Of a stretch of DNA of 64,000 bases, positions 14,008-55,339 are shown in pieces. A program made the position numbers and the translations under genes. The notes below the pieces were generated by a model. That model did not search any database and had not been told where the DNA came from. It worked only from the letters and a program-made list of their open reading frames with translations. Each line of letters starts with the position of its first letter. The first letter of the stretch is position 1. This DNA is from an uncultured Gammaproteobacteria bacterium (GTDB lineage: Bacteria; Patescibacteriota; Patescibacteriia; JAHIZJ01): the NCBI GenBank assembly GCA_964371245.1, contig CAYJKP010000001.1, forward strand, positions 315,042 through 379,041, written 5' to 3'.

Positions 14008-14086
14008 AATTCAAAATTCAAAAGGTAAAATTATTGTACCCGCTAACGGCGGGATTCTATCATTTTTAATTGTTAATTTTGAATTT
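14008..14086 (+). repeat. AATTCAAAATT-arm hairpin element, copy A (arms AAATTCAAAATTCAAAAGG / AATTTTGAATTT; core CCCGC-taacg-GCGGG)
   Basis: one of four copies sharing arm sequences and architecture, with a different compensating core stem. Confidence 0.6.
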
Positions 14087-14207
14087 CCTGTATTCACATT
14101 AATTAAAAATAAAACGGACAGCCCTTGTGCGGACGGATGTCCGTACGAGGCTGCCCGGCCGGCGTGGCTACCCTAGGCGGGTGTCAGCCGGCGGCCGTGG
14201 TGGAAGA

Positions 14208-14996
14208 TCAGGCCCGCGTCATGCCGTTGAAGTTCGGCTTGATGACGTGGTACCGTCCCTGCCAGGCCGCGTTGGTCGTGAGAGCGATCTGCGCCATGGT
14301 TCCGACGTACTGGCCGTTCGCGATGTTGGCCACGTCGGTGTTCTGCCCCGCCGTAACCGCGAAGTCGTCGCAGGTGTTGGCGGTGGTGCTCATCGGGATC
14401 GAGTTCTCGTCGTTCTTGTAGGTACGGGTCGTCGTCGTGTTCGCGTTCTGTTCGCGGGCATCGGCGGCGGTCTTCGTGTCGGTGATCAGGGCGGCGTCGG
14501 TCTGCGCGTTGGATCTGTTTTGCGCCTCCTGCCGTGTCGAAGTAGCGACCAGCGGGTTACCCGAGAAGCCGACCTCGAAGGAAGAAGGAACGGAAGCCAG
14601 GGTGCCGGCAAGGAAGGTCGCGTTGGCTCTGCCCTCGCTTCCTACCGTGACCGCGATGGTCTGCTTCGCGATCCAGCTCGATTCCTCAGCGGTGTTGTTG
14701 TTGATCGTCAGCTCGTTCTCGGCATAGGTCTTGCTCGTGGTAGCCGTGAACTGGTCCACCCTACCCGCGGCCTCGCAGGTAATACCGGTGGAAGTGCTGA
14801 TGATGGTCTCGCTGCTGACGGCGTCGGCGGTCGATGTGCCGGCGGTCAGCGCGTCCGGGGCGATGGTCACGACCTGCGCGTCATTGTCGAACACCTGCGG
14901 GCTGATGGCCGTATTGGTGTTGGCGCTGCAGAACGTGGCCGGGATCAGGAACACAACCGCGAACAGTGCGAGTATCCAGAACTGCGTTCTCCTCAT
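14208..14996 (-). CDS. secreted Thr/Ala/Asn-rich protein, high-GC
   Basis: GGAGGG RBS 7 nt upstream of ATG 14996 (complement); signal peptide MRRTQFWILALFAVVFLIPATFCSA; terminator on minus strand at about 14110-14150. Confidence 0.6.
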   Translation of the reverse strand: MRRTQFWILALFAVVFLIPATFCSANTNTAISPQVFDNDAQVVTIAPDALTAGTSTADAVSSETIISTSTGITCEAAGRVDQFTATTSKTYAENELTINNNTAEESSWIAKQTIAVTVGSEGRANATFLAGTLASVPSSFEVGFSGNPLVATSTRQEAQNRSNAQTDAALITDTKTAADAREQNANTTTTRTYKNDENSIPMSTTANTCDDFAVTAGQNTDVANIANGQYVGTMAQIALTTNAAWQGRYHVIKPNFNGMTRA

Positions 14997-15282
14997 GGGG
15001 AATCCCTCCAAGAGGTGACGGTCACTACAATCAGCGTGTTTAAGCACCGATGTCGTGTGTTACGCTTGGTCCTTTCGCGGGTCCTCCAATTCCCGAAAGG
15101 GTGTTGCCGTCGCAGAAACGACGGATTAGCGGGCATTGATACAAAACACTCTACTATAAGAATATCGACAAATTAAAGAGAAATCAAGTTTTTGTCAAGA
15201 CTTTTTTGATGCCGCCGGCATTTTACTTTCTTTTTCCGGCGTTTTTGATACAATGAAGGCAATAATACGTCATAATAATACT

Positions 15283-16080
15283 ATGGAAACACCAACCACT
15301 ACCGCCTTCGTCCAACCTGACACGCGCTTTCGGCGGTTGCGCACGTTTAATCTGGCCATGTTCGTTCTCCACCTCGGCCAGGGGATCGCGATGCTTATTT
15401 TGAGCAATGATTTCAGTGTGCCAGTCACGACCGCCTTTGTTGAATACAGCCGATCAGCCGGGAAGCTTGAGCCGGTACTCAACCAAATATTCAGTCTTAA
15501 ACTCGGTCCGTTGGTCGCCGGTTTTTTGTTTCTCTCGGCCTTGGCCCATCTCATGATCTCACTGCCACGGATCTACGACTGGTACGTCGCCAATTTGAAG
15601 CGCGGCCTGAACCTGGCGCGCTGGATCGAGTATGCCTTTAGCTCCTCGATCATGATTGTCGTCATCTCTATGCTGGTCGGAATGTACGATGGCATCAGCC
15701 TTATGTTCGCGTTTTTTCTTAACATGATGATGATTTTATTCGGCTGGGTGATGGAAGTGCACAATCAAACAACCCAGAAGACTAATTGGACGTCATATAT
15801 CTTCGGCTGTATCGCCGGCGCGATCCCGTGGGTGGGTGTTGCGCTCTATCTGTTTTTGTCAGGCAGCGGCAATGCCAAAGCGCCGACATTTGTCTATTGG
15901 ATTTTCTTTTCTATCTTTCTGTTTTTCAATGTCTTCGCAATAAACATGATTCTCCAGTATAAGAAAGTCGGGCCGTGGCGCGATTATCTCTATGGCGAGC
16001 GTGCCTATATCATCCTCAGCCTGGTAGCAAAGTCATTGCTCGCCTGGCAGGTCTGGGCCGGAACATTGCGGCCGGTATAA
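15283..16080 (+). CDS. heliorhodopsin (alternative upstream start at 15253)
   Basis: 7-TM; RWIEYAFSSSIMIVVI, ILFGWVMEVHNQT, FGCIAGAIPWVGVALY and YGERAYIILSLVAKSLLAWQVWAGTL (Schiff-base Lys in VAKS) match the heliorhodopsin family as recalled for HeR 48C12; TGATACAAT extended -10 at 15241-15249. Confidence 0.8.
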   Translation: METPTTTAFVQPDTRFRRLRTFNLAMFVLHLGQGIAMLILSNDFSVPVTTAFVEYSRSAGKLEPVLNQIFSLKLGPLVAGFLFLSALAHLMISLPRIYDWYVANLKRGLNLARWIEYAFSSSIMIVVISMLVGMYDGISLMFAFFLNMMMILFGWVMEVHNQTTQKTNWTSYIFGCIAGAIPWVGVALYLFLSGSGNAKAPTFVYWIFFSIFLFFNVFAINMILQYKKVGPWRDYLYGERAYIILSLVAKSLLAWQVWAGTLRPV

Positions 16081-16091
16081 TAAGCAATTAA

Positions 16092-16160
16092 GAATTCAAA
16101 ATTAAGAATTAAAAATGTCGGTAGGCGACTGCGTCGCTAGAATAATATTTAGTACGATTA
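16092..16160 (+). repeat. AATTCAAAATT-arm hairpin element, copy B (core GCGAC-tgc-GTCGC)
   Basis: GAATTCAAAATTAAGAATTAAAAATGTCGGT precedes the hairpin, as in copies C and D. Confidence 0.6.
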
Positions 16161-16177
16161 TTAGTTAAGCCTTTTTT

Positions 16178-16666
16178 ATGGAAACACCCGCCGAACAAAA
16201 ACCCGTGAATCCGAGTAGCCGGCCAGTAACGCCAATCTGGTTTTTCCTCCTTATCATTATTGGACTAATTATTGTAATAGCCTTTGGTTATCTCGCCTAC
16301 ACAACAATTAATAGTAATGAAAATACAGAAGCAATTCACGTTGTGGCAAAAGTCAATAAATTAGAAGGAATTCCGAATGCCGAGGCTATCATCAAGGCGT
16401 GTCACCTGAAAAGATTTAATGCGCCGCGCTATGATCCTGTTCAAGTAGAATCACGCCCTGACGGGAAAATCAGGGTGATGTATCCTTGCTGTGACCTGCC
16501 TTATTATATCCTTGATTCAAATGCCGAATACCTATGCGATATAGGCGGTATGCCAAAACACATACCATACCCAGACGAATGTCCTGATTCGATTGCCATA
16601 TATGATAATGGAACATATATTGATTGTTCAACCTATAATACCAAAACAACTCCATTTTATCCCTAA
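16178..16666 (+). CDS. membrane-anchored Cys-rich protein, N-terminal METPAEQKPV motif
   Basis: N-terminal tail plus single TM helix; paralogous N-terminus with the next gene. Confidence 0.55.
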   Translation: METPAEQKPVNPSSRPVTPIWFFLLIIIGLIIVIAFGYLAYTTINSNENTEAIHVVAKVNKLEGIPNAEAIIKACHLKRFNAPRYDPVQVESRPDGKIRVMYPCCDLPYYILDSNAEYLCDIGGMPKHIPYPDECPDSIAIYDNGTYIDCSTYNTKTTPFYP

Positions 16667-16752
16667 TAACATTATTTTATAGCATAGACAACGAAGTCAT
16701 AGAAAAACCACGACAGTAAAACATTTGGATTATTAATTAGATACAAATTTGT

Positions 16753-17502
16753 ATGGAAACACCAGTTGAACAAAAACCCGTTGGCTCAGTAGAGCAGCCA
16801 GTTAAGCCAATTGAAAAACCAACGAAGAAACATCACCGTCTCCGCACGACGCTGATCGTCTTGGCTATTATCATTGTTGTGTTCGGAGTTGGCATCGCCG
16901 CCACCGGACTGATTACAATACCGGGTCTCTCCGATATCCTCGGTACCAATACGCCAAAAGACCTGGGCATAAAAGCCAGCCAGGAGGCGTTGACCAGTTT
17001 GGAAAAGAAAATGCCGGTGACGATTGAGGGCAGCGCGGCGGAATTATGCCTGGCCTGCAACCAGACGTATTCGGGCGTGGTTTCAGTTACCGCCAACCGT
17101 ACGTCCGAAGAGATGACTTCCTTTCTCAAGCTCTGGCCGCGCCAGGAAGATGATATTTTAAAGAATACTCAGGTAAAATTTATTGACGGCGGTCTAGAAA
17201 TATCAACTAAGCTGAATAAATATATTCAAGCGCCCGTCTACGTGAAGGTGTTGGTCGAGCGAACGTCAAATAAAACCGTACGCCTTAATATCACCCAGGG
17301 CAAGATCGGCATTTTCAACGTGCCGGAAAAATACCTCCGCCAGGCGAACGACTTTTTCCAGGACCTTGTAAATAACCGCCTAGCCGATGTGACCGGCTTT
17401 TCCATGGACCAGCTTGAATATCACAATGGGTACTCGACATTTTCCGGTACCTATCCAGCAGTGGTAAAGCCGGCGGCAGGAAAGTGGACGGAAGCGTTTT
17501 AA
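16753..17502 (+). CDS. membrane-anchored extracellular protein, N-terminal METPVEQKPV motif
   Basis: N-terminal tail plus TM helix; shares the METPxEQKPV N-terminus. Confidence 0.55.
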   Translation: METPVEQKPVGSVEQPVKPIEKPTKKHHRLRTTLIVLAIIIVVFGVGIAATGLITIPGLSDILGTNTPKDLGIKASQEALTSLEKKMPVTIEGSAAELCLACNQTYSGVVSVTANRTSEEMTSFLKLWPRQEDDILKNTQVKFIDGGLEISTKLNKYIQAPVYVKVLVERTSNKTVRLNITQGKIGIFNVPEKYLRQANDFFQDLVNNRLADVTGFSMDQLEYHNGYSTFSGTYPAVVKPAAGKWTEAF

Positions 17503-17588
17503 AAAGACGACCACAGATTGACATACCGGGCGCGGCCATGATATTGTGGCCGCGTCGGTTTTCGTTTCATCCAACCACGGAGGGGTGC

Positions 17589-18008
17589 ATGAACTCGACG
17601 ATGTGGTCGTGGAAGCAGTGGGGGAAACTGGTCCTCTACGACGTGTTCTTTCTGATCGTGATCGGGATCGCCCTAACAGCCGCCAGTCATCGCAGCATCT
17701 TTGGTCGACTGGTTTGGTCGGCTGGCCTGGCGGGCTTTTCCGGACTGATCGGACTGGTCTTCAGCATCGGGCCGAGATATTTCGTCAACGTCGACAACCA
17801 GCCCGCTCGGATCGTGCTCTGGCTCGTTTTCAGCGCGGCAGTCATCGGCCCGCTGGCACTCGTTACCCTCTGGTCCTGGGAACTGAAGGCCGGTTTGGAC
17901 GCAATCGCGCTGATAGGCGGCGGCCTGGCTGGTTACTTCTGGAGCCAGCTTGACCGCTGGCGCCGCACCCTCAGGGCTGGCAGTGTCCAGCCGTCGCGCC
18001 TGACGTAA
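17589..18008 (+). CDS. hypothetical 4-TM membrane protein, high-GC
   Basis: GGAGGGG RBS 5 nt upstream of ATG 17589; hydrophobic; about 60% GC. Confidence 0.5.
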   Translation: MNSTMWSWKQWGKLVLYDVFFLIVIGIALTAASHRSIFGRLVWSAGLAGFSGLIGLVFSIGPRYFVNVDNQPARIVLWLVFSAAVIGPLALVTLWSWELKAGLDAIALIGGGLAGYFWSQLDRWRRTLRAGSVQPSRLT

Positions 18009-18053
18009 TCCGTCGGGCCTTTTAATTTTCGCACTATAACACAGGTTTTTAAA

Positions 18054-18078
18054 TAAAAAATCCGGAATATGCCGGAAA
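18054..18078 (-). terminator. terminator of ABC permease gene (TCCGG-aatatg-CCGGA with A-run)
   Basis: hairpin with T-run on the minus strand. Confidence 0.45.
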
Positions 18079-18097
18079 TATAATGCCTAAACGAAAA

Positions 18098-19195
18098 TTA
18101 CTGCGCTCGTATCCGAAAGCCTTTCCAGGCCAAGACAAATGACGCCACGATCCAGCCGCCGAGAATAGCCAAGGCGGTCGGATAATCGAACGGCGTGCGG
18201 CCGTCGATCGAAATGCCGCGCAATATTTTTAGGAGAGAGGTTAGGGGCAGAAAGTCAACTATTTTTCCGACCGCTTTTGGCAGCATGTCGGGCGAGAAAA
18301 AGACGCCGGACAGAAACATCATCGGCGTGGTAATCGCGTTCGCCATCGCTTCGGCTGTATTTACGGTCTTCGCCTGGCCGGCCACGAAGAAGCCGATGTT
18401 CAAGAACACGATTGTTCCCACGAGCGTTGTCAGGGCCAGCCAGACATAGCTGCCGTAGACCTGGACGTGAAAGACAAACCGGCCGACCCCGATAATCAAG
18501 GCAATTTGAATCAGGGCGAGGAAAAGGTAATTACCGATTTCAGAAATCAAATAACTGCGGATATTGATCGGCGTGGCTATCAGCCGTTTTAATATTTTTC
18601 GTTCGCGATACCGGGTGATGCCGACCGCAATGCCGATAATGGAGGAAAACATGATCGCCATGCCGAGAATGCCCGGCATGATGAAGTCGAGGTATTTAAT
18701 GTTGTGGCCTTGGACGCCTTCAGATTTGACGAGAAAAAGTTTCGGCGTGCCCGTGCTCTGGAGGGTGTAGTCGTTTAAGAACTGGTTAACCACAGTGACG
18801 ATGATCTGGCTCTGTTGATTGCTGCCGTCGATGATGACGTCAAAGGAAATCGGTTCTTTTTGCTCTTTCGGATTGACCGTTCCGAATTCTTTTGGAATAA
18901 CAATGATGCCCGCCAGCTCGCTTTTTTTCATTTGCTCGCGTGCCGCATCGATTGTGCCGAAATCCTTCTGATAAAAAACATTAAGCCCCATGAGCTGGCT
19001 GATTAATTGTCGCGAGGTGTCGTTCTTCGCTTCATCAATGAACTGGACGTTAAATTTCTGCGGCGTGTCAAAACGGAACAGGCCGAAGATGATCAAAAAC
19101 AAAAGCGGGAACAGTAGCGACCAAAAAAGCGACTGTCGATCCCGGAAGGTCATTTTGATATTGGCGACGAACAGCCGCCAGGTCGGGTTATTCAC
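18098..19195 (-). CDS. ABC-2 family transporter permease
   Basis: 6-TM ABC-2 topology; 8-nt overlap with the upstream ATPase gene. Confidence 0.75.
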   Translation of the reverse strand: MNNPTWRLFVANIKMTFRDRQSLFWSLLFPLLFLIIFGLFRFDTPQKFNVQFIDEAKNDTSRQLISQLMGLNVFYQKDFGTIDAAREQMKKSELAGIIVIPKEFGTVNPKEQKEPISFDVIIDGSNQQSQIIVTVVNQFLNDYTLQSTGTPKLFLVKSEGVQGHNIKYLDFIMPGILGMAIMFSSIIGIAVGITRYRERKILKRLIATPINIRSYLISEIGNYLFLALIQIALIIGVGRFVFHVQVYGSYVWLALTTLVGTIVFLNIGFFVAGQAKTVNTAEAMANAITTPMMFLSGVFFSPDMLPKAVGKIVDFLPLTSLLKILRGISIDGRTPFDYPTALAILGGWIVASFVLAWKGFRIRAQ

Positions 19196-20117: not shown

Positions 20118-20126
20118 AGCCTGACC

Positions 20127-20155
20127 AGTATATCAGAGCGACCCACGTCGGTCAA
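20127..20155 (-). promoter_or_regulatory. promoter TTGACC-17-TATACT on minus strand, -10 only about 9 nt from the ABC ATG (near-leaderless)
   Basis: read on the reverse complement of 20118-20160. Confidence 0.4.
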
Positions 20156-20164
20156 ACCCTTGAT

Positions 20165-20193
20165 TTGACAGATAAAAAAGGCTATAGTACAAT
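20165..20193 (+). promoter_or_regulatory. consensus sigma70 promoter TTGACA-17-TACAAT upstream of infA
   Basis: perfect -35 with 17-nt spacer. Confidence 0.55.
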
Positions 20194-20306
20194 GCTTTTG
20201 GGTAAATAAATATTACCAGATGTCAAGATTTTGTCTCGAACAGCGGTAGAATCAAAGAAATTCTCTGTCGGGCTATCTTGACGAGAATTTTTCGTTTTCG
20301 CAATCC

Positions 20307-20558
20307 ATGGAGAAACGAAAGCCGTATACACCATCACGACCCCGCGTTAAACCGGGCTTTGTCGAAGCCAGCGGTGTCGTCGAGGAATTATTGCCCAACG
20401 CCACCTTTCGCGTTACCTTAGACAATGGTCACGCGGTCTTGGCTCATCTCTCCGGGCGCATGCGCATGAATCGCATCAAGATTCTTCCTGGCGACCGGGT
20501 GAGCCTGGAAATGACCCCGTATGATTTAACGAAAGGCAGAATAACATACCGACAATAA
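20307..20558 (+). CDS. infA: translation initiation factor IF-1
   Basis: S1-like IF-1 sequence [42 protein letters not shown]. Confidence 0.9.
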
Positions 20559-20560
20559 CC

Positions 20561-20674: not shown

Positions 20675-20691
20675 TATCATTATCACGTTTT

Positions 20692-23870: not shown

Positions 23871-24407
23871 ATGCCACGTACTGCCAAAACCCCCAGCGAT
23901 AAGACAGCAAAGGACGAAAAGCCGAAGAAACGCGGCCGTCCTCGGAAAACGGTGATCAAGAAAGAAGTGCCGGCCGTCCAGCAGCCGCCAGTCGTTGAAA
24001 AACCAAAGGTGAAGCGCTTTACCTACCTCTTCGCCGTCGGACGACGGAAAGAGGCAGTCGCCCGAGTCCGGTATTATCGCAAGGGTGAAGGCAAGTTTAC
24101 AGTGAATGCCAAGCCAGTCGAACAGTATTTTTCGACCTTAGAAACCCAGAATATTGTCAAAATGCCGATTCAGGCTGTCAGTGCCACGCTCGATGGGGAC
24201 GTCTCGATCAAGGTCCAGGGCGGCGGCAAGCGGGGACAAGCTGATGCGAGTCGACTGGGCATTGCTCGAATATTGATTTTGCTTGATAAGAAGAACCGGC
24301 CGACCCTGAAACGGCTGGGCTATTTGACGCGCGACCCACGGGTGAAAGAACGGAAGAAATATGGCTTGAAACGAGCCCGGCGCGCACCGCAGTGGCAGAA
24401 GCGCTAA
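23871..24407 (+). CDS. rpsI: 30S ribosomal protein S9 with Lys-rich N-terminal extension containing an AT-hook-like KKRGRPRK
   Basis: S9 C-terminus LGYLTRDPRVKERKKYGLKRARRAPQWQKR. Confidence 0.9.
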   Translation: MPRTAKTPSDKTAKDEKPKKRGRPRKTVIKKEVPAVQQPPVVEKPKVKRFTYLFAVGRRKEAVARVRYYRKGEGKFTVNAKPVEQYFSTLETQNIVKMPIQAVSATLDGDVSIKVQGGGKRGQADASRLGIARILILLDKKNRPTLKRLGYLTRDPRVKERKKYGLKRARRAPQWQKR

Positions 24408-24410: not shown

Positions 24411-24501
24411 AATTCAAAATTCAAAATTCAGAAGTAAAAATGATGGTACGCCGCCGCTTGTGCGGCGGGAAACATTCATTATACATTTTGCATTTTGAAT
24501 T
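24411..24501 (+). repeat. AATTCAAAATT-arm hairpin element, copy C (arms AATTCAAAATTCAAAATTCAGAA / CATTTTGCATTTTGAATT; core CCGCCGC-ttgt-GCGGCGG)
   Basis: between rpsI stop and flippase start; same architecture as copies A, B and D. Confidence 0.65.
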
Positions 24502-25982
24502 ATTACTTTACGATGACGCCAAGCTATCACCCAGATCGAATAGCCCGGAATACCTCGTACCTGACGATTGCCCTGACCGCCCAAAAGGTACTCTCCTTCG
24601 TATATTTTATTTACATTTCGCGGTCGATCGGTAGTGAAGAAATCGGCCGCTATCTCTTTGCGCTGTCGTTAACGACCATTGTCGGCGTTTTTATTGACAT
24701 TGGATTAAATCCGGTACTGACGCGTGAAATTGCGAAGGATCCGCAAAAAACCCACCTCTATTTAAATACCACTTTTTCACTGAAACTTCTTCTGGCTGTG
24801 CTCGCGTACGGCGCCGTTTTTTTGTTTATCAATCTGCCATTTTTAGGCTATCCGGCTGAGACGAAACACCTAGTCTATCTCTCAGGCCTTGTCATGATAT
24901 TTGATACCTTTGTTTTGAGCTTTTATTCAATCTTTCGCGGCTATCAAGTTCTGAAATACGAGTCGCTGGGCGTCATTCTCAATAAAATCGTGGTGATGGG
25001 CTTGGGTGTTTTATTTATTTTGATGCACAAGGGTACACTCTTTTTGGTGCTGGCAATTCTTTTCGGGAGCATGTTTAACATTGTGTACACCGCGACTTTA
25101 TTGATTCGCAAGGTGCAGTGGCGCCCGCGATTTTACCTTGATAAAAATGTTTTGAAAGCGCTGCTGCGGATTGCGCTACCGTTCGCCGTGGCCAGCATAT
25201 TTACAGTCATTTACGGTTCGATTGATTCAGTCCTGCTCAACATGCTCAGCGGTGCCCGCGGCAACAGTTTTGTTGGCTGGTATGGCACTGCCTATAAACT
25301 CACATACTCATTTCAGTTCATTCCAATCGCGGTTGGGGCGGCTGTCTTTCCGGCGATGAGTTCGTATTTTATTTCGTCAAAGGCCTTATTGGCGCGGACC
25401 TTTGAACGGGCATCGTATTATCTGCTCGTGATCGTCATGCCGATCGTGTTCGGCGTTTTCGCGGTTGCCGAAAAACTCATTCTCCGGCTCTGGGGCAATG
25501 CCTTCGGTACCTCAATCCATCCGTTACAAATCTTGATTTTTAGCTTGATCTTCGTTTTTCTCACCTTTCCGATCGGGGCATTGTTAAACGCCAGTAACCG
25601 CCAAACGCGCAATACGATCAATATCGGCATTGCCATGGTCGTTAATATTATTTTAAATTTAATCCTGATACCGAAATATACGTTTATCGGCACGAGTATT
25701 TCCTCGCTGGTCTCGACCTTCATTCTTTTTGCCCTCGGTTTGTCGGTCGTCCGTCAAACTATCACCGTGAACTGGCGGTATCTCGTCACCATTGTGTTCA
25801 AAACGCTGGTCTCAGCCCTGATTATGGTTGGCATTCTATTGGCCTTGAAGGAAAGAGTATCGTTTATCATATTAATTCCGCTGGGCGTCGTGATATATTT
25901 TCTGGCACTTTTCCTGTTTCGGGGCTTTGGCCAAAACGAGTATAAACGGATTTTTCACGTCGTCCTGCGGCGACTTTCATGA
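24495..25982 (+). CDS. MOP-superfamily flippase (polysaccharide biosynthesis protein, Wzx/MurJ-like)
   Basis: about 14 TM helices; operon with two glycosyltransferases. Confidence 0.6.
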   Translation: MNYYFTMTPSYHPDRIARNTSYLTIALTAQKVLSFVYFIYISRSIGSEEIGRYLFALSLTTIVGVFIDIGLNPVLTREIAKDPQKTHLYLNTTFSLKLLLAVLAYGAVFLFINLPFLGYPAETKHLVYLSGLVMIFDTFVLSFYSIFRGYQVLKYESLGVILNKIVVMGLGVLFILMHKGTLFLVLAILFGSMFNIVYTATLLIRKVQWRPRFYLDKNVLKALLRIALPFAVASIFTVIYGSIDSVLLNMLSGARGNSFVGWYGTAYKLTYSFQFIPIAVGAAVFPAMSSYFISSKALLARTFERASYYLLVIVMPIVFGVFAVAEKLILRLWGNAFGTSIHPLQILIFSLIFVFLTFPIGALLNASNRQTRNTINIGIAMVVNIILNLILIPKYTFIGTSISSLVSTFILFALGLSVVRQTITVNWRYLVTIVFKTLVSALIMVGILLALKERVSFIILIPLGVVIYFLALFLFRGFGQNEYKRIFHVVLRRLS

Positions 25983-28667: not shown

Positions 28668-28683
28668 GTTACGGGAAAGGTAT

Positions 28684-28712
28684 TGCATAATGTCAAAATG
28701 TTTGGTAATTTG
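28684..28712 (+). promoter_or_regulatory. promoter TTGCAT-17-TAATTT ending at the tRNA-Thr 5' end
   Basis: -35/-10-like hexamers with 17-nt spacer. Confidence 0.35.
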
Positions 28713-28787
28713 CCGGAGTAGCTCAGTTGGTAGAGCAACGCTTTTGTAAAGCGAAGGTCGGGGGTTCGAATCCTCTCTCCGGCTCCA
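28712..28787 (+). tRNA. tRNA-Thr (anticodon UGU)
   Basis: cloverleaf: acceptor GCCGGAG/CTCCGGC, D-arm GCTC-AGTTGGTA-GAGC, anticodon loop TTTGTAA, T-loop TTCGAAT, encoded CCA. Confidence 0.8.
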
Positions 28788-28849
28788 GACGAACGTCACA
28801 AACCAAATCAGAAAGCCTGGCAAAAAGCTTTAAATAAGTTCATTGCTCA

Positions 28850-28960
28850 TATAAACTCACAAATCAGTAACAGTTGAAATAGCCAGTAAAACCAATAAAC
28901 AAATCAACTAATCAATCGATAAACCAATAAATCAATCATCTATTATTCTAATAAACCATC
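28850..28960 (+). repeat. CA/A-rich leader with repeated AACCAATAAA / AATCAA motifs upstream of rpmG
   Basis: seen in sequence. Confidence 0.4.
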
Positions 28961-29544: not shown

Positions 29545-29556
29545 ATTTATTACCTG

Positions 29557-29580
29557 GGGGCGTAGTTCAGCGGTAGAACC
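29557..29580 (+). other. orphan tRNA 5'-half-like fragment (acceptor plus D-arm: GGGGGCG-TA-GTTC-AGCGGTA-GAAC), tRNA-Trp-like
   Basis: canonical acceptor/D-arm with no downstream anticodon or T-arm before the intact tRNA-Trp about 57 nt later. Confidence 0.45.
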
Positions 29581-29636
29581 CCGCACCAAGCGCACATTAT
29601 AAAATTCAATTATATTCTTGCTCGTCAGTTAGTGAT

Positions 29637-29711
29637 GGGGGCATAGTGAAATGGCTATCACAAAGGTCTCCAAAACCTTTATTCTAGGTTCGAATCCTAG
29701 TGCCCCTGCCA
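29637..29711 (+). tRNA. tRNA-Trp (anticodon CCA)
   Basis: acceptor GGGGGCA/TGCCCCT, anticodon loop CTCCAAA, T-arm CTAGG-TTCGAAT-CCTAG, encoded CCA. Confidence 0.8.
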
Positions 29712-29833
29712 CAAGCTGATGAGGATTGATATTAATATGCTTTGGTACGGGGCGATTCCCTCCGCTCCTGCCAACACAACCTTTTATCGAGCGACCCCCC
29801 AGTGCTTTTTAGAAGTTGTTATTAAAATAAGCC

Positions 29834-34179: not shown

Positions 34180-34617
34180 ATGGCCATTCGGGTCGCGGTG
34201 ATCGAGACGTGGGACGAGACGGATGTTCTGGAGGGCATGACGGCGCAGCAGGCACTGGCGGCGACCGGCGTGGAGTTCGATCCGGAGACCCAACGCCTGG
34301 TGAGCGCGAAGGACGGCGAGATCAAGCCGGATGCGATCGTCCAGGACGGCGACACCATCTTCGTCGAGGCGCTCGAGGGCGATGACGCCGATGAGGTCGT
34401 CGACGACGAGGCCGATCCGGGCAAGAAGACCGGTGACGACGCGGTGGTCGACGAGGCCGATCCGGGCAAGAAGACCGGTGACGACGCGGTGGTCGACGAG
34501 GCCGATCCGGGCAAGAAGACCGGTGACGACGCGGTGGTCGGCGAGGCTGGCGCGGGCGGCGGAGGCGGCGAGGCCGTCGAGGCTGCGGCTGGCGGAGCCG
34601 GGGCTGCGAAGGAGTAG
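34180..34617 (+). CDS. ThiS/MoaD-like beta-grasp domain protein with acidic tail containing 3 perfect 15-aa tandem repeats (DEADPGKKTGDDAVV), about 68% GC
   Basis: AGGGAGGAGGG RBS; ...IVQDGDTIFV resembles the ThiS/MoaD C-terminal strand but lacks GG; 45-bp perfect tandem repeats. Confidence 0.55.
   Translation: MAIRVAVIETWDETDVLEGMTAQQALAATGVEFDPETQRLVSAKDGEIKPDAIVQDGDTIFVEALEGDDADEVVDDEADPGKKTGDDAVVDEADPGKKTGDDAVVDEADPGKKTGDDAVVGEAGAGGGGGEAVEAAAGGAGAAKE
34405..34539 (+). repeat. 3 perfect tandem copies of a 45-bp coding repeat
   Basis: GACGAGGCCGATCCGGGCAAGAAGACCGGTGACGACGCGGTGGTC x3. Confidence 0.9.
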
Positions 34618-48331: not shown

Positions 48332-48386
48332 CGGAAAAATGACTATTTCTTGACACTTTAGCCATTTTTTTTTATCCTAAAGAGAC

Positions 48387-49358: not shown

Positions 49359-49379
49359 ACGCATAAAGAAATTATTGCC

Positions 49380-50609
49380 ATGAGTAGAGTAACCACTATT
49401 TGGAAAAAAGAACTTCGGGACGGCATCCGCGACCGGCGGACGCTCGTGTCAACGATTATTTTACCCATGCTCCTGATGCCGGGCATCATCATCGGGATGG
49501 GGAAGTTGGTTACCTGGCAAATATCCCAGGTTAAGGATCAGCCGGTGACGGTCGGGGTGGTTAACGCTTCGTCCGCGGCTGATTTCGTCTCGCAATTGCG
49601 CGCGACAAAAAATGTCGCTGTCACAGAAATGACCGGTGAAATACAACCTGAAGTGAAGAACAAAAAAGTTGATATAGCCATCGTCTTTCCGGCTTCGTTC
49701 CAAACAGCCATTGAAGCGGCACAGCCGGTTCAGCTTGAGGTCTATCAGAATTCATTGAATACGAAATCAACGACTGCGCTTACTCGGCTCACGACCGTGG
49801 CCGCACAGTACAATCAAACGCTCCTGCAAGCTCGGCTCGCCAAGGAAAGCATTAGCCCGCTTGTGCAAAACGGCGTCAGCCTAAAAACAACCGAGGTGGC
49901 GTCCGATCAGGAAATTGGCGGCTTCGGGCTGAGCTATCTCTTGCCGCTCTTCATTGTCATGTGGGCGGTCGTCGGCGGCCAAACGTCAGCCGTGGACATT
50001 TCAGCCGGTGAAAAAGAGCGAAAAACACTCGAATCGCTCCTGCTCACACCGGTCAGCCGTTTGCAGATCGTTTTTGGCAAATTCCTGGCCGTGGCCACCA
50101 TGGCGCTGTCCTCGGAGATCATCGCGCTTGGCAGTATGTATGCTGTTTTTGCGTTTGGCGGTGGCGACTTATTTACCGCCACAGCCAGTCAGTCGTCGGG
50201 CCTGGTGCAAACGTCGGCGGTCGGGGTGAATTTTACGCTCCAGCCGCAGGCCGTTATTCTCATGTTCCTGGTCAGCATCCTGCTGGTGATGCTTTTTTCT
50301 GCGCTTAATCTTTCTGTGGCAATATTCGCGAAAAGCTACAAAGAAGCCCAGAGCTATATTGGCCCGTCGTACCTCATCGTTATCTTGCCGGTGGTGTTAG
50401 TAAACATGTTGCCTGGTTTTCAGGCGAAGCTCGGTTTTTTCGCTATTCCGATCGTGAATGCCGTCTTATTGTTCAAAGAGGTGCTGGTAGGTGTCTATAA
50501 TACCAGTCACATCGTTATGACGATTGGAGTCATGATCGTCAGCGCGCTGATCACGATGTACATTGCCAGCCGGATTTACCGGAAAGAGGGAGTGTTGTTC
50601 AAGGATTAA
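49380..50609 (+). CDS. ABC-2 family permease (NatB-like)
   Basis: N-terminal TM, large extracytoplasmic loop, C-terminal 5 TM. Confidence 0.75.
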   Translation: MSRVTTIWKKELRDGIRDRRTLVSTIILPMLLMPGIIIGMGKLVTWQISQVKDQPVTVGVVNASSAADFVSQLRATKNVAVTEMTGEIQPEVKNKKVDIAIVFPASFQTAIEAAQPVQLEVYQNSLNTKSTTALTRLTTVAAQYNQTLLQARLAKESISPLVQNGVSLKTTEVASDQEIGGFGLSYLLPLFIVMWAVVGGQTSAVDISAGEKERKTLESLLLTPVSRLQIVFGKFLAVATMALSSEIIALGSMYAVFAFGGGDLFTATASQSSGLVQTSAVGVNFTLQPQAVILMFLVSILLVMLFSALNLSVAIFAKSYKEAQSYIGPSYLIVILPVVLVNMLPGFQAKLGFFAIPIVNAVLLFKEVLVGVYNTSHIVMTIGVMIVSALITMYIASRIYRKEGVLFKD

Positions 50610-50613
50610 ATAT

Positions 50614-51273
50614 ATGAGTAATTTTATTGATTACCAATGGCGAAAAGAATATCGAAAATGGCTAATAGGTATTGGCATAGTAGGAGTAATAATAATATTT
50701 TCTAGTGAATTTCTTGTTAATAAATTTTTACCTATCGGGAATATTACTATTAGTGAAAAGATATTAGGTTCAATATATTTTGTAACGGCTACAATAATAT
50801 TTTGGTACACTCGAGAAACATTCGATCTAAAAGTTATTCAACAAAAGGAACTAATCGAAATTAGAAAACAAACAGATTTTCAAATAACTCCATATTTACG
50901 AATACAATGGTCAAATAATAAAGACGAAATATTTCATATCATCAATGATGGCAAAGGGTTGGCTATCAATCTGCGTTTTTTACCATTTTCTCCAACTACA
51001 GAGCTTGTATTAAACATTAAACATCGTCCTGTAATATCTAGTGGTGGTTATACTATTGTTTCAACGGATGAATTATTTAGTAATATTAAACAGCCAAGCA
51101 TCATACAGGATACTAGTATATTAAAGGGACTAATATTGTCATACGTAAAAAATAGTTTTTCAATTGAAGCAACATATAAAGACATAATGAATAATCAGTA
51201 TAATGTCGTTTTCTGTTCGGATCCTACATATAACGATTTGTTTTATATAAATAGTCAAAAGAGGGTGTCATGA
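50614..51273 (+). CDS. hypothetical membrane-anchored protein, very low GC (about 28%)
   Basis: inner ATG immediately after the upstream stop; N-terminal TM helices. Confidence 0.45.
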   Translation: MSNFIDYQWRKEYRKWLIGIGIVGVIIIFSSEFLVNKFLPIGNITISEKILGSIYFVTATIIFWYTRETFDLKVIQQKELIEIRKQTDFQITPYLRIQWSNNKDEIFHIINDGKGLAINLRFLPFSPTTELVLNIKHRPVISSGGYTIVSTDELFSNIKQPSIIQDTSILKGLILSYVKNSFSIEATYKDIMNNQYNVVFCSDPTYNDLFYINSQKRVS

Positions 51274-51400
51274 GACTGTCATGCCGAACTTGTTTCGGCA
51301 TCTCTCACCGGTAAATAGCTTGTGCCGGAGAGAGATCCTGAAATAAATTCAGGATGACAACGAGGGGAGAGAAAGACGGTGGGGAGCGGATAGGGTATCA

Positions 51401-51703
51401 ATGGAAAGCCGGACGTATTATGTGTATATTCTTACAAACAAAAACGACAATGTGTTATACATAGGAATGACGAATGATTTACTACGGCGGGTTTACGAAC
51501 ACAAACAGGGGATATATAAAGGCTTCAGCCAGAGGTATCATTTAACAAAGCTCGTCTATTTTGAAGAAACGGATGACGTAACCGATGCAATCGGCAGGGA
51601 AAAACAACTGAAACTGTGGCATCGTGATTGGAAGATGAACCTTATTAAAAAGGAGAATCCTGAGCTGACGGACTTATCAAAGGACTGGTATGAAATTGCT
51701 TAA
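51401..51703 (+). CDS. GIY-YIG nuclease superfamily protein (YhbQ/UPF0213-like, about 100 aa)
   Basis: YYVYIL...LYIGMTNDLLRRVYEHKQG GIY-YIG motifs. Confidence 0.8.
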   Translation: MESRTYYVYILTNKNDNVLYIGMTNDLLRRVYEHKQGIYKGFSQRYHLTKLVYFEETDDVTDAIGREKQLKLWHRDWKMNLIKKENPELTDLSKDWYEIA

Positions 51704-52139
51704 AGGCGCAACCTTAAAATCAAATACTGATCGCGCCGTTGGTATCGTTAAGAACGGGAATTCAGTTCTCCTTTTCCATCGACGAAAGAAAGAGCGCGAG
51801 TATTTCTACTTTCCGGGCGGGGGAGTGGAGAAAGGCGAAACGCTGGAACAAGCGCTCTACCGAGAAATCCTTGAGGAGGTGAATCTGGAAGTACACGATT
51901 CACGGCATATTGTTTCCCTGCGAAACCGCGGTCGTCACGAACACTATTTCATCGTCGATCGTTTTGCTGGCCAGCCGGCGCTCGGACCGGAACAGCTGGA
52001 GAAGATCAGCCAAGAATCGTATATCGCTGTCGTCTGGAAGTCGCTGCAGGAAATATTTCAGCTCAACGTGTATCCGCCGGAAATATTACCCCATATTTAC
52101 CAATACGCACTTTCCATTGCGTCAACGTCTGACGATTGA
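51690..52139 (+). CDS. NUDIX hydrolase
   Basis: Nudix box GGGVEKGETLEQALYREILEEVNLEV. Confidence 0.8.
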   Translation: MKLLKGATLKSNTDRAVGIVKNGNSVLLFHRRKKEREYFYFPGGGVEKGETLEQALYREILEEVNLEVHDSRHIVSLRNRGRHEHYFIVDRFAGQPALGPEQLEKISQESYIAVVWKSLQEIFQLNVYPPEILPHIYQYALSIASTSDD

Positions 52140-53020
52140 TAACACATATGAACACAATCGAGGTAAAAGATTTGCGTAAACACTTCGGTTCGACCAAGGC
52201 TGTCGACGGCATCAGCTTTGACGTTCGCCAGGGGGAAATCTTCGGTTTCCTCGGGCCGAACGGCGCCGGTAAAACAACCACGATCCGATGCTTAATGGAC
52301 TTCATCCGGCCGACTTCGGGCAGCATCCAGTTGCTCGGCCAGGACAGCCAAGCGAACTCGGTTGAGCTGAAGCACCGAATCGGCTATCTCTCCGGTTACG
52401 TCCGGCTGTACGATAAATGGACCGGTTGGGAGCACATCAGATTTTTTCAAAAATTCAACAGCCGATCGGATTCGTCAGCGGAATTGATCAAGCGTCTGGA
52501 TTTTGACCCGACCCGAAAAGCCGGCCAGTTGTCGTCCGGCAATAAGCAGAAACTTGGCATTTTACTGGCGATAATGCACGATCCTAAATTGCTGATTCTC
52601 GATGAGCCGACGATTGGCCTGGATCCATTGCTTCAAAATGAGATCTACAAACTTCTGCGCGAACGCGTTCAAAAGGGTGCGACCGTGTTTTTCTCGTCGC
52701 ACAACCTGCCGGAGGTTGAAAAGATCTGCACCCGTGTCGGTATCATCCGGCAGGGGAAAATGGTGGCCGTGCAGAGCATCGACGAATTGAAAGAAAAGAA
52801 GGTCTATCGCATTCACGCGCACGCCGCCGGCGGGTTTGATCGATCACGATTTAATCTGTCGAACGTGTCATTTTTGGAATCACCAGCCAACGAATTAAGC
52901 CTCGAGGTGCGCGGCGACGTGACCGGAATTGTTCAGCTGCTGGGCAAATACCAGTTGTCCGACTTATCGATTGAACGCGCGCCCTTGGAGCAAATATTTC
53001 TTGAATATTATGAACAATAA
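52136..53020 (+). CDS. ABC transporter ATP-binding protein
   Basis: GFLGPNGAGKTTT, LSSGNKQKL, LILDEPT. Confidence 0.9.
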   Translation: MITHMNTIEVKDLRKHFGSTKAVDGISFDVRQGEIFGFLGPNGAGKTTTIRCLMDFIRPTSGSIQLLGQDSQANSVELKHRIGYLSGYVRLYDKWTGWEHIRFFQKFNSRSDSSAELIKRLDFDPTRKAGQLSSGNKQKLGILLAIMHDPKLLILDEPTIGLDPLLQNEIYKLLRERVQKGATVFFSSHNLPEVEKICTRVGIIRQGKMVAVQSIDELKEKKVYRIHAHAAGGFDRSRFNLSNVSFLESPANELSLEVRGDVTGIVQLLGKYQLSDLSIERAPLEQIFLEYYEQ

Positions 53021-53819
53021 TATGTGGCCAATTATCGTTCGGTTTCTCAAAGACAGACGCATATCGCTTCTGGTATATTGTTTGTCTGGCATCGCCTTTC
53101 TCGAAATGTATGTGGCAATCTATCCCAGTATATTTTCTCAGGCTGCGCGTTTTAACGAACTCTTCCAAAGCTACCCGCAAGAGTTTCTGAAGGCATTTGG
53201 CATTGATCGGCTGGACATGTCGACCTTGGAAAATTATATCGCCATGGAACATTTCAGCATGATTTGGCCGCTCATGATGATCATCTTGATGATTTCTATC
53301 GCGGGCGGGGCGTTGGCCGGTGAAATAGAGCGGGGAACGATCGAGCTTGTGCTGTCCCGTCCGATTTCCAGACTGAAGCTTTTTATCGGAAGATATATCT
53401 ATGGTTTTATTGCGCTCGTGATATTTATTCTGACAACGGTTTTTATGATCATTCCGTTGGCTGAACTGCATAACGTCACGTATGATGCCGGCCGATACTA
53501 CATGATAGCGGTCCTTGGCATCCTTTTCGGCCTGGCTGTTTTTTCGCTCGCCATGCTGGCCTCAGCCCTGTTCTCGGAAAAAGGACGGGTCTCTATGGTG
53601 ATGGGCGGTTTGCTCGTGCTCATGTACGTTTTAAACCTGGTGGCCGCGCTCAAAGAAAACCTGTCGGATCTGAAATATCTTTCGTTTTTCCATTACTTTG
53701 ACGCCCAGTCAGCGCTGACCAAAGGCGAACTGAACCTGACGTCGGTCTGGGTGTTTGCCGGGATCATTGTCGTGAGCACGATCGTTGGGGCAGTGGTGTG
53801 GAAGAGGCGGGATGTATAG
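53010..53819 (+). CDS. ABC-2 family permease
   Basis: 6-TM hydrophobic ORF overlapping the ATPase stop. Confidence 0.7.
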   Translation: MNNNMWPIIVRFLKDRRISLLVYCLSGIAFLEMYVAIYPSIFSQAARFNELFQSYPQEFLKAFGIDRLDMSTLENYIAMEHFSMIWPLMMIILMISIAGGALAGEIERGTIELVLSRPISRLKLFIGRYIYGFIALVIFILTTVFMIIPLAELHNVTYDAGRYYMIAVLGILFGLAVFSLAMLASALFSEKGRVSMVMGGLLVLMYVLNLVAALKENLSDLKYLSFFHYFDAQSALTKGELNLTSVWVFAGIIVVSTIVGAVVWKRRDV

Positions 53820-53877
53820 GAATATTATTTATTAATGAAGAACTAAGTGAAGTTTATTAATCAAGTTACGTAAACAT

Positions 53878-54624
53878 ATGCAAAGATCTGATTACAATTT
53901 TTTTCAACCAATTATATCGTTTCTCGGTCTTGTCATCTCGCTAGTGATTACAGTTTTACCAGTGTTTAATGTTAGTCAGTTAAAACAGGCCTTTCTTGAT
54001 CCAAAATTATCTACCCCAGTATCATTCTTTGCTTTTATTATAGGCATTATTATCATATGGCAGATTATGGAATTTCATTCTTATATTGAAATACGAATTG
54101 GGAAGAAAAAAATGATACATTCTAAGACTGGTGAAGAATATTTTTCCCCAAGAATTGTAATTACCCATAAACAAATAATATGGATATTAATCATTTTATC
54201 CATAATATCCTCATTCACTTTTATGTTTCTAAAAGAAATAAAAAATCCGGCTTTAATTGTTATCTACATACAATCATTTTTATATCTGGTATTTTTCCTT
54301 CTTCTAATTTCAATTTTTGGCCTTTTAATTGCCTGGACTAGAGGAAAATATAAATGGACAGAGGAAAAAGAGAATTTTCCTAATACCATATTTAATACAT
54401 TAGAAAAGTGTAGGCATATTAAGCCAGGTATAGAGATATATGAAAATATTACTGCGAATCCGGAAGAGCTAGAAAGAGAAGGAATCACGGGCGTTTTTGG
54501 AGCAAAAAGAATTAAAGTACGAACTACCGTACAGGAGGATAATATAATTGAGTTCTATGCAAGTGGCGACGGTAAAGAAATATTTAAAATAACAAAAAAA
54601 CATAAAATCGAAGAGGAAAAATAA
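53878..54624 (+). CDS. hypothetical polytopic membrane protein, very low GC (about 28%)
   Basis: hydrophobic ORF. Confidence 0.45.
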   Translation: MQRSDYNFFQPIISFLGLVISLVITVLPVFNVSQLKQAFLDPKLSTPVSFFAFIIGIIIIWQIMEFHSYIEIRIGKKKMIHSKTGEEYFSPRIVITHKQIIWILIILSIISSFTFMFLKEIKNPALIVIYIQSFLYLVFFLLLISIFGLLIAWTRGKYKWTEEKENFPNTIFNTLEKCRHIKPGIEIYENITANPEELEREGITGVFGAKRIKVRTTVQEDNIIEFYASGDGKEIFKITKKHKIEEEK

Positions 54625-54629
54625 TTTGT

Positions 54630-55118
54630 TTGTATATAAAATACCAACTTATTTGCCAAGTAACCCAGATGGAGAGTGATAAAGCTAAAACAATACCCCT
54701 GAAATCAAAGGCCAACCGAGTTTTTGGATACATCATCAATGTCATCATCCACGCCGTCATGCTGTATGTCGCGAATAATCTGTTGAATTGGGGCGCGCAG
54801 TTTATTCTGCCGACCTGGGCAGACGTTCTTGGGGTCGTACGCTTTTCATTTATTTTAAGCATTGTGGCCTACGCGACGTTCATCATCTACGATCGTCGGG
54901 GGTATTATTACTTCCTGCGAACAGCCATGGACGCGGTCAGCATCTACGTTGGGTACCGGCTGGTGACGGTATTTCCTTTTGACTTCTATGGATTTTATCA
55001 TCAAGGCTGGCTGAATGATGTCTTCCCATACGTGTTATGGTTCGGGATTGCCGCGTTAGTAATTTCAATCATTGTCCGAACAGTGAGATTAGTGGCAAAT
55101 AAGAATCTATATTATTAA
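54630..55118 (+). CDS. hypothetical membrane protein (alternative start 54669)
   Basis: hydrophobic ORF. Confidence 0.45.
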   Translation: MYIKYQLICQVTQMESDKAKTIPLKSKANRVFGYIINVIIHAVMLYVANNLLNWGAQFILPTWADVLGVVRFSFILSIVAYATFIIYDRRGYYYFLRTAMDAVSIYVGYRLVTVFPFDFYGFYHQGWLNDVFPYVLWFGIAALVISIIVRTVRLVANKNLYY

Positions 55119-55190
55119 GCGCGCCAATTCCGTAGAGCGACTTGATTCGAGCGCGATGAACGAGTAAACGGGGGAGTAACCCGTCACTCG

Positions 55191-55220
55191 TTGTATTTTT
55201 TCCTCCGTTGGTGCTATACT
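55191..55220 (+). promoter_or_regulatory. cop operon promoter (TTGTAT-18-TATACT)
   Basis: -10 TATACT at 55215-55220, immediately 5' of a CsoR-type operator. Confidence 0.45.
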
Positions 55221-55224
55221 GCTA

Positions 55225-55249
55225 ATACCCCTACCTGGGGTGGGGGTGT
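55225..55249 (+). promoter_or_regulatory. CsoR-type operator (G/C-tract pseudo-palindrome ATACCCCTACCTGGGGTGGGGGTGT)
   Basis: matches the ATACCC...GGGGTAT-like architecture of known CsoR operators and overlaps the promoter upstream of csoR. Confidence 0.6.
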
Positions 55250-55263
55250 GGATAAGTTTACCA

Positions 55264-55339
55264 ATTCAAAATTCAGAATTAAGAAGGAAGAATGTCGGTT
55301 GTCCCGTTACGGGACCACAATAATTATTACTTCTGAATT
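55264..55339 (+). repeat. AATTCAAAATT-arm hairpin element, copy D (arms AATTCAAAATTCAGAATT / CTTCTGAATT; core GTCCCG-tta-CGGGAC), inside the csoR leader
   Basis: same architecture as copies A, B and C; AAGAATGTCGGTT precedes the hairpin as in B. Confidence 0.65.

Follow-up and report, generated by a model that had tools for sequence, protein, structure and literature searches.

A dispersed family of imperfect palindromic repeats with heptad arms around a variable GC hairpin in a Patescibacteria genome

What are four similar elements, each with AT-rich arms next to a short GC hairpin, doing between the genes of a tiny bacterial genome? They lie in a 64,000-nucleotide (nt) stretch of contig CAYJKP010000001.1 (positions 315,042 to 379,041 of the forward strand), the whole of which is called the window here, and are named c1 to c4 in the order of their positions. 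The original prediction, made from the sequence alone, took them for elements of about 80 nt whose hairpin stems covary between copies, held that they were not recent mobile-element copies, and offered three candidate roles: a repeat like repetitive extragenic palindromes (REPs) or bacterial interspersed mosaic elements (BIMEs), a small structured RNA or leader module, and a palindromic protein-binding site. In this study, we show that c1 to c4 are members of one family of imperfect palindromes, dispersed between the genes of a Patescibacteria genome. The family looks like a functional, previously undescribed relative of bacterial repeats of the type of REPs and of miniature inverted-repeat transposable elements (MITEs).

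Anatomy of the four copies

The family has four copies in 81.5 kilobases (kb), that is, in the window and 17.5 kb of flanking contig. The unit is about 80 nt long and consists of two inverted arms of about 30-37 nt, built of degenerate heptads, around a copy-specific GC stem-loop of 13-18 nt; the inverted 3' arm is present in three of the four copies (c1, c3 and c4). In window coordinates the copies are as follows.

14008-14085, no strand assigned: c1, arm 14008-14037 (AATTCAA AATTCAA AAGGTAA AATTATT GT), hairpin 14039-14053 (CCCGC/TAACG/GCGGG), inverted arm 14056-14085
16086-16137, plus strand: c2, 5' arm 16086-16122 (AATTAAG AATTCAA AATTAAG AATTAAA AATGTCG GT), hairpin 16125-16137 (GCGAC/TGC/GTCGC), no 3' arm
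24411-24501, plus strand: c3, the best-formed copy, 5' arm 24411-24447, apical stem 24451-24457/24462-24468 with loop 24458-24461, inverted arm 24472-24501
55263-55346, plus strand: c4, 5' arm 55263-55299, hairpin 55301-55315 (GTCCCG/TTA/CGGGAC), inverted arm 55317-55346

A point that the original prediction missed is that the arms are 7-nt repeats of the AATTCAA/TTCAAAA type. The 5' arm follows the scheme (AATTCAR)n-AAKKAAR-AATKNNKGT with n = 1-3, in which one to three AATTCAR heptads are succeeded in register by AAGGAAG, AAGTAAA or AATTAAA, then by AATGNNG or AATTATT, and finally by GT and the hairpin. Two or three heptads are exact in c1 to c4 and the later ones degenerate, and paralogous arms are 74-81% alike. 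Tandem Repeats Finder (TRF) reported period-7 arrays at 14007-23, 14062-86, 16086-116 and 24411-41, and a repeat search of the window grouped the four copies as families D7 and D8. The 30-nt degenerate 5'-arm pattern AATTCARAATTMARAANNNARAATKNYKGT matched the plus strand of the window exactly four times, at c1 to c4, and with up to three mismatches it matched the minus strand at 14056-85, 24472-501 and 55317-46. No match is expected by chance, as none of 100 dinucleotide shuffles contained one. The 11-mer AATTCAAAATT alone was weakly enriched (9 matches; shuffles averaged 3.8, and two of the 100 had as many).

A perfect GC stem of 5-7 base pairs follows the conserved GT by 2-4 nt in all four copies. 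Hairpins of this kind occur at a window-wide rate of 3.7%, and composition-preserving shuffles gave a joint probability of about 3e-6 for the four stems. The hairpins differ in length and loop and are not alignable between copies, and both strands of the near-palindrome read as an A-rich arm, a GC hairpin and a T-rich arm. The predicted RNA fold of c3 reached -36.4 kcal/mol (z = -6.1); whole-element folds were predicted for c1 (z = -2.7) and c4 (z = -2.0), and none for c2.

The AATTCARAATTMARAANNNARAATKNYKGT shuffles and the joint stem probability thus uphold four elements at the predicted places as more than chance, and the hairpin stem is, as had been stated, different in each copy and always self-complementary. 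The extents needed correction, with c4 reaching 55346 and c2 covering 16086-16137. A 3' arm had been assigned to every copy, and none is recognisable in c2; the AATG..GGT motif, also assigned to all, occurs in c2 to c4, with AATTATTGT in its place in c1. The pattern matches do share the plus strand, which is weak evidence for a common orientation of an element that is nearly palindromic.

Selection on the arms and turnover of the copies

Arms and hairpin behave in opposite ways. In a covariation alignment of the arms of six elements, taken in both orientations, 15 of the 31 arm pairs were invariant and none carried changes on both sides, and the arms were 72.4% complementary, below all 500 shuffles (mean 80%). 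Within an element, the two arms differ systematically as variants of the heptad scheme. The arms are conserved as sequence, not as complementarity, and show no covariation, whereas in the apical hairpin pairing is kept and the sequence is free. A long paired stem was therefore rejected as the conserved feature.

The compensatory variation described in the original prediction thus fails for the arms. For the hairpin it holds between orthologous or homologous copies elsewhere; among the copies c1 to c4 the differences amount to hairpin replacement, with no column covariation. Two orthologous public loci, L126 and L225 (77% identical over 423 nt), have one difference in 40 positions of the heptad arm, and their hairpins, GTCCCGC/GCGGGAC and GCCCCGA/TCGGGGC, differ by two compensatory double substitutions. 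One compensated pair was found between L194 and L241 and two between L134 and L220, whose flanks are not alignable, so that these are homologous copies with orthology not shown.

The strength of selection was estimated from L246, a syntenic relative at 90.3% nucleotide identity; contigs L120-L125, at least 99.8% identical to the window, were uninformative for comparison. The three codon positions of the window and L246 are 95.3%, 98.0% and 77.1% identical, and four-fold sites have diverged by 0.40 (A/T) and 0.19 (G/C). The c3 arms differ at 3 of 68 positions, with 24.4 differences expected from four-fold sites (P = 7.5e-10), and the c3 centre differs at 3 of 23. This comparison shows strong purifying selection on the arm sequence at resident sites. 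A low mutation rate of AT-rich DNA was rejected as the cause because A/T four-fold sites diverge more than G/C ones. Concerted evolution or gene conversion was rejected because paralogous arms resemble one another far less than orthologous arms do (1 difference in 36 positions for the window and L246).

When the differences from L246 were placed on the plus-strand fold of c3, five of the seven substitutions fell among the 33 unpaired positions and two among the 72 paired ones (P = 0.03). At each of the two paired positions a C opposite G has become U, giving G.U on the plus strand and A.C on the minus strand, and no substitution in c3 breaks a plus-strand RNA pair. For the c3 element of L246, the predicted folding energy is -32.3 kcal/mol for the top strand and -20.2 kcal/mol for the bottom strand.

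The family is also dynamic at the DNA level, with copies gained or lost at orthologous sites, one core replaced and one inner part flipped. Conserved in L246, c3 is absent from L248, which together with L254 represents one more distant lineage (ribosomal protein S9 86% and heliorhodopsin 84% identical). At the empty c3 site of L248 the rpsI stop lies 25 nt from the flippase start, and one AATTCAA heptad stands inside a small palindrome, AACAAATTCAATTTGTT. The c2 site of L246 has the same 5' arm, an unrelated core (CCCACC/CAA/GGTGGG) and an intact 3' arm, and that of L254 is a 39-nt gap with no element; c1 is missing from L246 together with the adjacent TSP3 gene. An unfiltered search with a profile built from 11 arms found no arm in L248, L250 or L254-L256.

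The csoR operon that follows c4 is carried by L251 and L249, whose neighbouring protein is 72% and 80% identical, respectively. L251 has an element in the same place with the identical stem GTCCCG/CGGGAC. It aligns with c4 better in reverse (71/86 identities) than forward (62/92): the ends of the arms on the outside agree in forward orientation, and the 52 nt inside agree better in reverse (45/52 against 37/52 forward), so that the core has flipped through exchange between the arms. At 71/86 identities c4 has been retained in L251 although the neighbouring protein is only 72% identical. Considering presence and absence at orthologous sites, the replaced core and the flipped one, the earlier statement that these are not mobile-element copies was too strong. 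Relatives lacking the element do offer empty sites (25 nt in L248, 39 nt in L254), as had been envisaged, and the alignment of filled with empty sites is not precise enough to resolve a duplication.

Gene context, a possible role and the alternatives

The gene contexts named in the original prediction were correct. The heliorhodopsin stop codon is 6 nt before c2, and the place of the missing c2 3' arm is occupied by the leader of a duplicated gene of 162 amino acids (aa). Between rpsI, which stops at 24407, and a Wzx-like flippase gene, which starts at 24513, c3 fills the 105-nt gap. On the minus strand, c1 lies between the terminator-like hairpin and T-run of gene 14208-14996 and the start (13939) of a TSP3-repeat gene. 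Located in the csoR 5' leader, c4 ends 14 nt upstream of the ATG at 55360; it is also downstream of a terminator-like hairpin and is preceded by one further feature, as read from the sequence.

55191-55250, plus strand: putative csoR promoter (of the extended -10 type) and operator, with TTGTAT at 55191-96, an 18-nt spacer, TGcTATACT with the -10 hexamer at 55215-20, and the CsoR-type operator ATACCCCTACCTGGGGTGGGGGTGT at 55226-50

This putative promoter has a weak -35 hexamer and was not listed by the promoter scan; its -10 hexamer and the putative operator are conserved in L249 and L251. As promoter and operator are both upstream of c4, c4 would be inside the transcript. Homologs of S9 and heliorhodopsin carry the names of Patescibacteria or Kerfeldbacteria.

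Considering these results, we tentatively propose a REPIN- or MITE-like palindromic repeat (REPINs being inverted REP doublets) that is kept by its host and may function as an orientation-independent hairpin-plus-heptad module within transcripts. The element would be transcribed as part of neighbouring mRNAs, since c2 and c3 lie between cistrons that are only 39 and 25 nt apart in the lineage without the element and c4 lies in the csoR leader. The GC hairpin would fold first, flanked by A-rich and U-rich heptad tracts; as these tracts are present on whichever strand is read, the module could work in either orientation. The heptad arms would then be read as sequence by a trans-acting factor, and the element might serve as mRNA punctuation, as a processing or stability signal, and may affect the translation of neighbouring cistrons. 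It would act neither as a terminator nor as a simple long double-stranded stem. Two leads, and only leads, on the reader are that the RNase E/G consensus of the RN|WUU type is present in every heptad, and that cold-shock-domain proteins bind about 7 nt per monomer.

Several points weigh against this proposal. The RNA level of action is one that we infer, and the reader of the heptads is hypothetical. The spacer in which c1 lies may be untranscribed, and the arm profile detected no further arm in the window or in the 17.5 kb of flanking contig. The csoR copy of L249 is a decayed remnant without hairpin, which implies that its function is dispensable. The asymmetry of folding is inconsistent, as in the c2 element of L246 it is the bottom strand that folds better (-27.2 kcal/mol, against -19.9 for the top strand) and in c1 and c4 neither does, and the G.U argument consists of two substitutions. 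Flipping of the palindrome and indels beside copies fit a DNA-level element equally well.

One such element would be purely selfish, a non-autonomous MITE or REPIN with arms that serve as terminal inverted repeats. A transposase with its gene at another place in the genome would recognise them as DNA, with no gain for the host. Inverted arms, small size and intergenic positions would all suit it, as would presence and absence at orthologous sites, a core replaced and another flipped between relatives, and a decayed copy; of the three indels that distinguish the window from L246, two lie directly beside copies, and the single AATTCAA heptad at the empty c3 site is a possible target. We nevertheless consider it unlikely. 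In divergence, the arms of an orthologous copy fall about 8-fold below four-fold sites, c4 has been kept across a lineage whose synonymous sites are saturated, and selection for mobility does not protect individual resident copies, so that the conservation of the arms counts against a selfish element. Target-site duplications were not seen, in line with the original prediction, the cores are all different in the 81.5 kb, and no transposase was tied to the element, a search for a cognate insertion sequence not being feasible with only 81.5 kb of the genome readable. Alternatively, the inverted heptad arrays could be the target, in duplex or extruded DNA, of a protein for DNA binding, for recombination or of the nucleoid, with the GC core as a spacer or a cruciform nucleation point. 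Such a site agrees with arm sequence conserved without covariation, with a core flip through exchange between arms, with folding that has no consistent strand asymmetry, and with an imperfect palindrome, as expected if perfect ones are selected against; in a Nostoc preprint, heptamer tracts are reported to alter the behaviour of promoter and regulator (bioRxiv 10.1101/2022.06.06.494920). However, the inter-arm distance varies (13 to 22 nt and more) beyond what a simple dimeric operator could accommodate, and the c3 substitutions keep RNA-type G.U pairs that in DNA would be A.C or G.T mismatches. With three of the four copies inside transcription units and not at promoters, we regard a DNA-level site as improbable on balance.

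An A-tract, a hairpin and a U-tract on both strands are also the design of a non-canonical bidirectional terminator or attenuator. Both c2 and c3 follow stop codons by 4-12 nt with no other terminator in their gaps, public hairpin-bearing heptad elements nearly always come after a gene end (1 of 23 is divergent), and in L126 and L225 a stop codon is followed by the hairpin and then by ACCAAAAUUUUGAAUUUUG. Five T within 8 nt starting 0-2 nt after the stem were, however, found in 0 of 4 copies on either strand, so that none was flagged as a canonical terminator, as originally predicted; the first U-run comes 7-12 nt after the stem, and the genome has ordinary terminators of the hairpin and T-run type elsewhere. 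Efficient termination at c3, in an rpsI-flippase junction that is only 25 nt long, or at c4, in a 5' leader, would silence the genes downstream, which makes termination decidedly unlikely. An extremely improbable function is that of a small upstream open reading frame (ORF) or leader peptide starting at the ATG of AATGTCGGT or AATGATGGT, which stands right after the heptads in three of the four copies and has AAGGAAG just upstream in c4. In c1 the triplet is ATT, the frames of c2 (17 codons), c4 (14 codons) and c3 (longer) encode unrelated peptides, the flipped copy of L251 changes the peptide entirely, and the GC hairpin would lie inside the supposed ORF; this explanation is close to refuted.

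Rfam models matched only three tRNAs in the window at the gathering score and nothing on c1 or c2 at E up to 10. The promoter scan inside the elements gave one weak minus-strand match in c1 (TTCAAA-18-TAGAAT) and none consistent across copies, and leaderless promoters in the elements were rejected on inspection by eye.

Other observations concern the genes beside the copies. The TSP3-repeat gene (12476-13939, minus strand, 487 aa) contains internal 18/45-nt periodic repeats at 13111-13549, and in L246, where it is missing, the terminator region (window 12433-12498) is joined directly to the sequence upstream of gene 14208-14996. The 162-aa gene (16178-16666) and a 249-aa gene (16753-17502) have their first 34 nt in common (16173-16206 and 16748-16781, 88%) and similar leaders; the former is absent from L246 and L254, and is thus a recent partial tandem duplicate. 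Ribosomal protein S9 (23871-24407) has an N-terminal extension of about 56 residues before the Pfam S9 domain (residues 57-178), and this extension is common to many Patescibacteria homologs of 170-185 aa.

Elsewhere in the window, the intergenic regions 20118-20306 and 28668-28942 are 99.5% and 98.9% identical to L246, third codon positions being 77% identical. The former contains a near-consensus promoter (TTGACA-17-TACAAT, 20165-20193) upstream of infA and a long leader, and the latter contains a tRNA-Thr gene and upstream sequence of rpmG; in the 298-nt gap before this small gene (L33), an A-rich repeat with a period of 8/32, AAACCAATAAACAAATCAACTAATCAATCAAT, spans 28889-28958. The tRNA-Trp gene (29637-29711) is flanked by tRNA-like halves at 29556-29590 (GGGGGCGTAGTTCAGCGGTAGAACCCCGC) and 29745-29778 (ending in GGGGCGATTCCCTCCGCTCCTGCCA), from which ARAGORN, with introns of up to 300 nt allowed, built no gene. 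This region is a point of difference in gene content, as L246 has a ProRS gene there. A 45-nt tandem repeat (3.2 copies, 98% matching, 34404-34547) in ORF 34180-34617 encodes an acidic repeat of the type DDAVVDEADPGKKTG.

Distribution, related repeats and biological meaning

A 24-nt heptad pattern matched at least 119 loci in GTDB genomes; those listed are mostly simple (AATTCAA)n or (AATTCAG)n arrays from Nostocales, Bacteroidota, Acidobacteriota, Planctomycetota, Verrucomicrobiota, Clostridia and several groups of the Candidate Phyla Radiation (CPR), and the source genome is not among them. In metagenomes the full 30-nt pattern, with a chance expectation below 1, matched at least 120 loci, many from groundwater among the matches listed. 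About two dozen of the listed metagenome loci share a build in which heptads lead through GGT into a private GC hairpin, often with inverted T-rich heptads behind it. Of 23 public hairpin-bearing elements that could be scored, 22 lie between tandem or convergent genes, and both orientations occur.

Some public contigs carry variants on this theme. A larger heptad-armed subfamily, seen in L194 (about 870-1010), L224 and L241 and also in L111, L158 and L180, has a first private hairpin, behind which a segment common to its members, TATTATAATAT..GAGGAGC..AGCGACGA..ATAGACGAYAATTTTGAATT, leads into T-rich heptads; its first stem shows a compensated change from G-C to A-T between L241 and L194. In the gut or rumen contigs L008, L132 and L145, heptad tracts are followed by a shared repeat that begins GGGCGATTTGTGACRATGTAGGGGCGA and has its own GC hairpin, which suggests that heptad tracts often adjoin other small repeats.

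In REPINs and BIMEs, which RAYT transposases mobilise, the two halves pair into a long hairpin (PMC3116915, PMC3733652). These repeats share with the present family a dispersed, intergenic, imperfectly palindromic form of about 80-110 nt with two inverted conserved halves and variation between strains, and they are often transcribed with their neighbours, as c2 to c4 probably are. A REPIN-like tag is also seen, with GTAG abutting the GC stem in c2 and L251 and GTAC in c1, c3 and the c2 element of L246. In contrast, REPIN halves are conserved GC-rich palindromes with a variable spacer, and the halves here are AT-rich, non-palindromic heptad arrays with a variable GC centre. A conserved GC-rich palindrome of 20-40 nt with a GTAG/CGTC tag, typical of REPs, was not found, as the palindromes measure 13-18 nt and are unshared between copies. 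Nor is a RAYT gene known from this genome, of which 81.5 kb could be read.

Hairpin MITEs such as Correia/NEMIS of Neisseria, ERIC of enterobacteria and RUP/BOX of pneumococcus (PMC3184786, PMC3049150) are alike in their terminal inverted repeats, insertion between genes or into operons, presence/absence polymorphism, co-transcription and possible effect on mRNA processing or stability. Terminal inverted repeats are present in c1, c3 and c4 (up to 3 mismatches to the pattern, 72% complementary), c2 being without a second arm, and copies are missing at orthologous sites, namely c3 in L248, c2 in L254 and c1 in L246. MITE copies, however, share internal sequence and usually have target-site duplications, whereas the cores of the four copies and of the c2 element of L246 are unrelated and no direct repeat is common to the flanks of c1, c3 and c4. 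The arms here are moreover under purifying selection at the level of the host, unlike those of MITEs.

Bidirectional intrinsic terminators likewise present, on either strand, a GC hairpin that is preceded by an A-rich and followed by a U-rich tract. The GC-rich stem-loop is found in all four copies, but the U-run, 7-12 nt from the stem, is out of place on either strand, and two copies lie where termination would be harmful. Integron attC sites also have conserved paired ends around a variable central stem-loop, 3' of genes, some of the neighbouring genes here being variable like cassettes. Unlike attC, copies also occur after rpsI and in a 5' leader, no cassette array was seen, the core sites RYYYAAC/GTTRRRY are absent in the four copies, and no integrase turned up among the flanking proteins tested or in the Pfam annotations. 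The family resembles REPINs/BIMEs and hairpin-forming MITEs (Correia, ERIC) most, but is not a member of any of these groups, because it has no conserved GC-rich REP unit, no shared cores, no target-site duplications and no transposase known to be linked to it. Of the three roles first suggested, the REP/BIME-like one is closest, as a resemblance and not as a membership.

Tandem heptamer repeats have been described upstream of Nostoc PCC 7120 start codons (TTTTGAA/TTCAAAA; bioRxiv 10.1101/2022.06.06.494920) and in Beggiatoaceae, cyanobacteria and Bacteroidetes (TAACTGA; PMC4679880), in both cases without a known function or binding partner. The Nostoc heptamers and those of the present family have the same period of 7 and an equal unit, AATTCAA being a rotation of TTCAAAA, lie close to start codons or in leaders, and occur in several phyla; the TRF arrays of the window are period-7 repeats of just this TTCAAAA/AATTCAA type. 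The published heptamers are simple direct arrays, whereas those of c1 to c4 are degenerate, ordered and arranged as an inverted pair around a GC hairpin that is dispersed as a unit. No literature description of such an inverted, hairpin-centred form was found.

Heptads also occur within genes. In-frame (AATTCAR)3-4 tracts were seen in leuS of at least 10 divergent metagenome contigs (L143, L153, L156, L160, L161, L169, L208, L211, L236 and L244), where they encode EF(K/R)IQNS(K/E)F(K/R)I directly before the conserved VFTTRPDT motif, and a similar tract in an aroA-like (EPSP-synthase-like) ORF of L137 and L232 encodes NS(E/K)LKIKN. Nucleotide heptads at the same codons of proteins that are 65-80% identical suggest recurrent insertion or selection on the nucleic acid. 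We therefore raise, as a quite unlikely extension, that AATTCAR heptads constitute a recognition code, which a conserved factor would read 7 nt at a time or a templated process would write, and which would be common to Patescibacteria, cyanobacteria, Bacteroidota, Acidobacteriota and others, the palindromes of the window, the 5'-leader arrays and the leuS and aroA-like tracts being one system acting on RNA or single-stranded DNA. This cross-phylum question, including the leuS and aroA-like tracts, is the part that could exceed a variant of known elements.

Bacterial heptamer repeats have been noted since the 1990s, and we know of no function or binding partner for them. What is new here is that the known heptad occurs in an ordered, inverted arrangement around a structured core, with comparative evidence for strong purifying selection on its sequence in a tiny CPR genome that tolerates little non-coding DNA. 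The family adds a class of repeat to a phylum with almost no known regulatory elements, and it carries a practical warning, as annotation could mistake such elements, placed as they are at operon junctions and in leaders, for terminators or small RNAs. It also provides a concrete object for asking what reads the heptads, namely a short RNA or DNA bait with two natural orientations and natural empty sites. If true, a shared heptad code would unite the palindromes, the 5'-leader arrays and the in-frame tracts of leuS and aroA-like genes.

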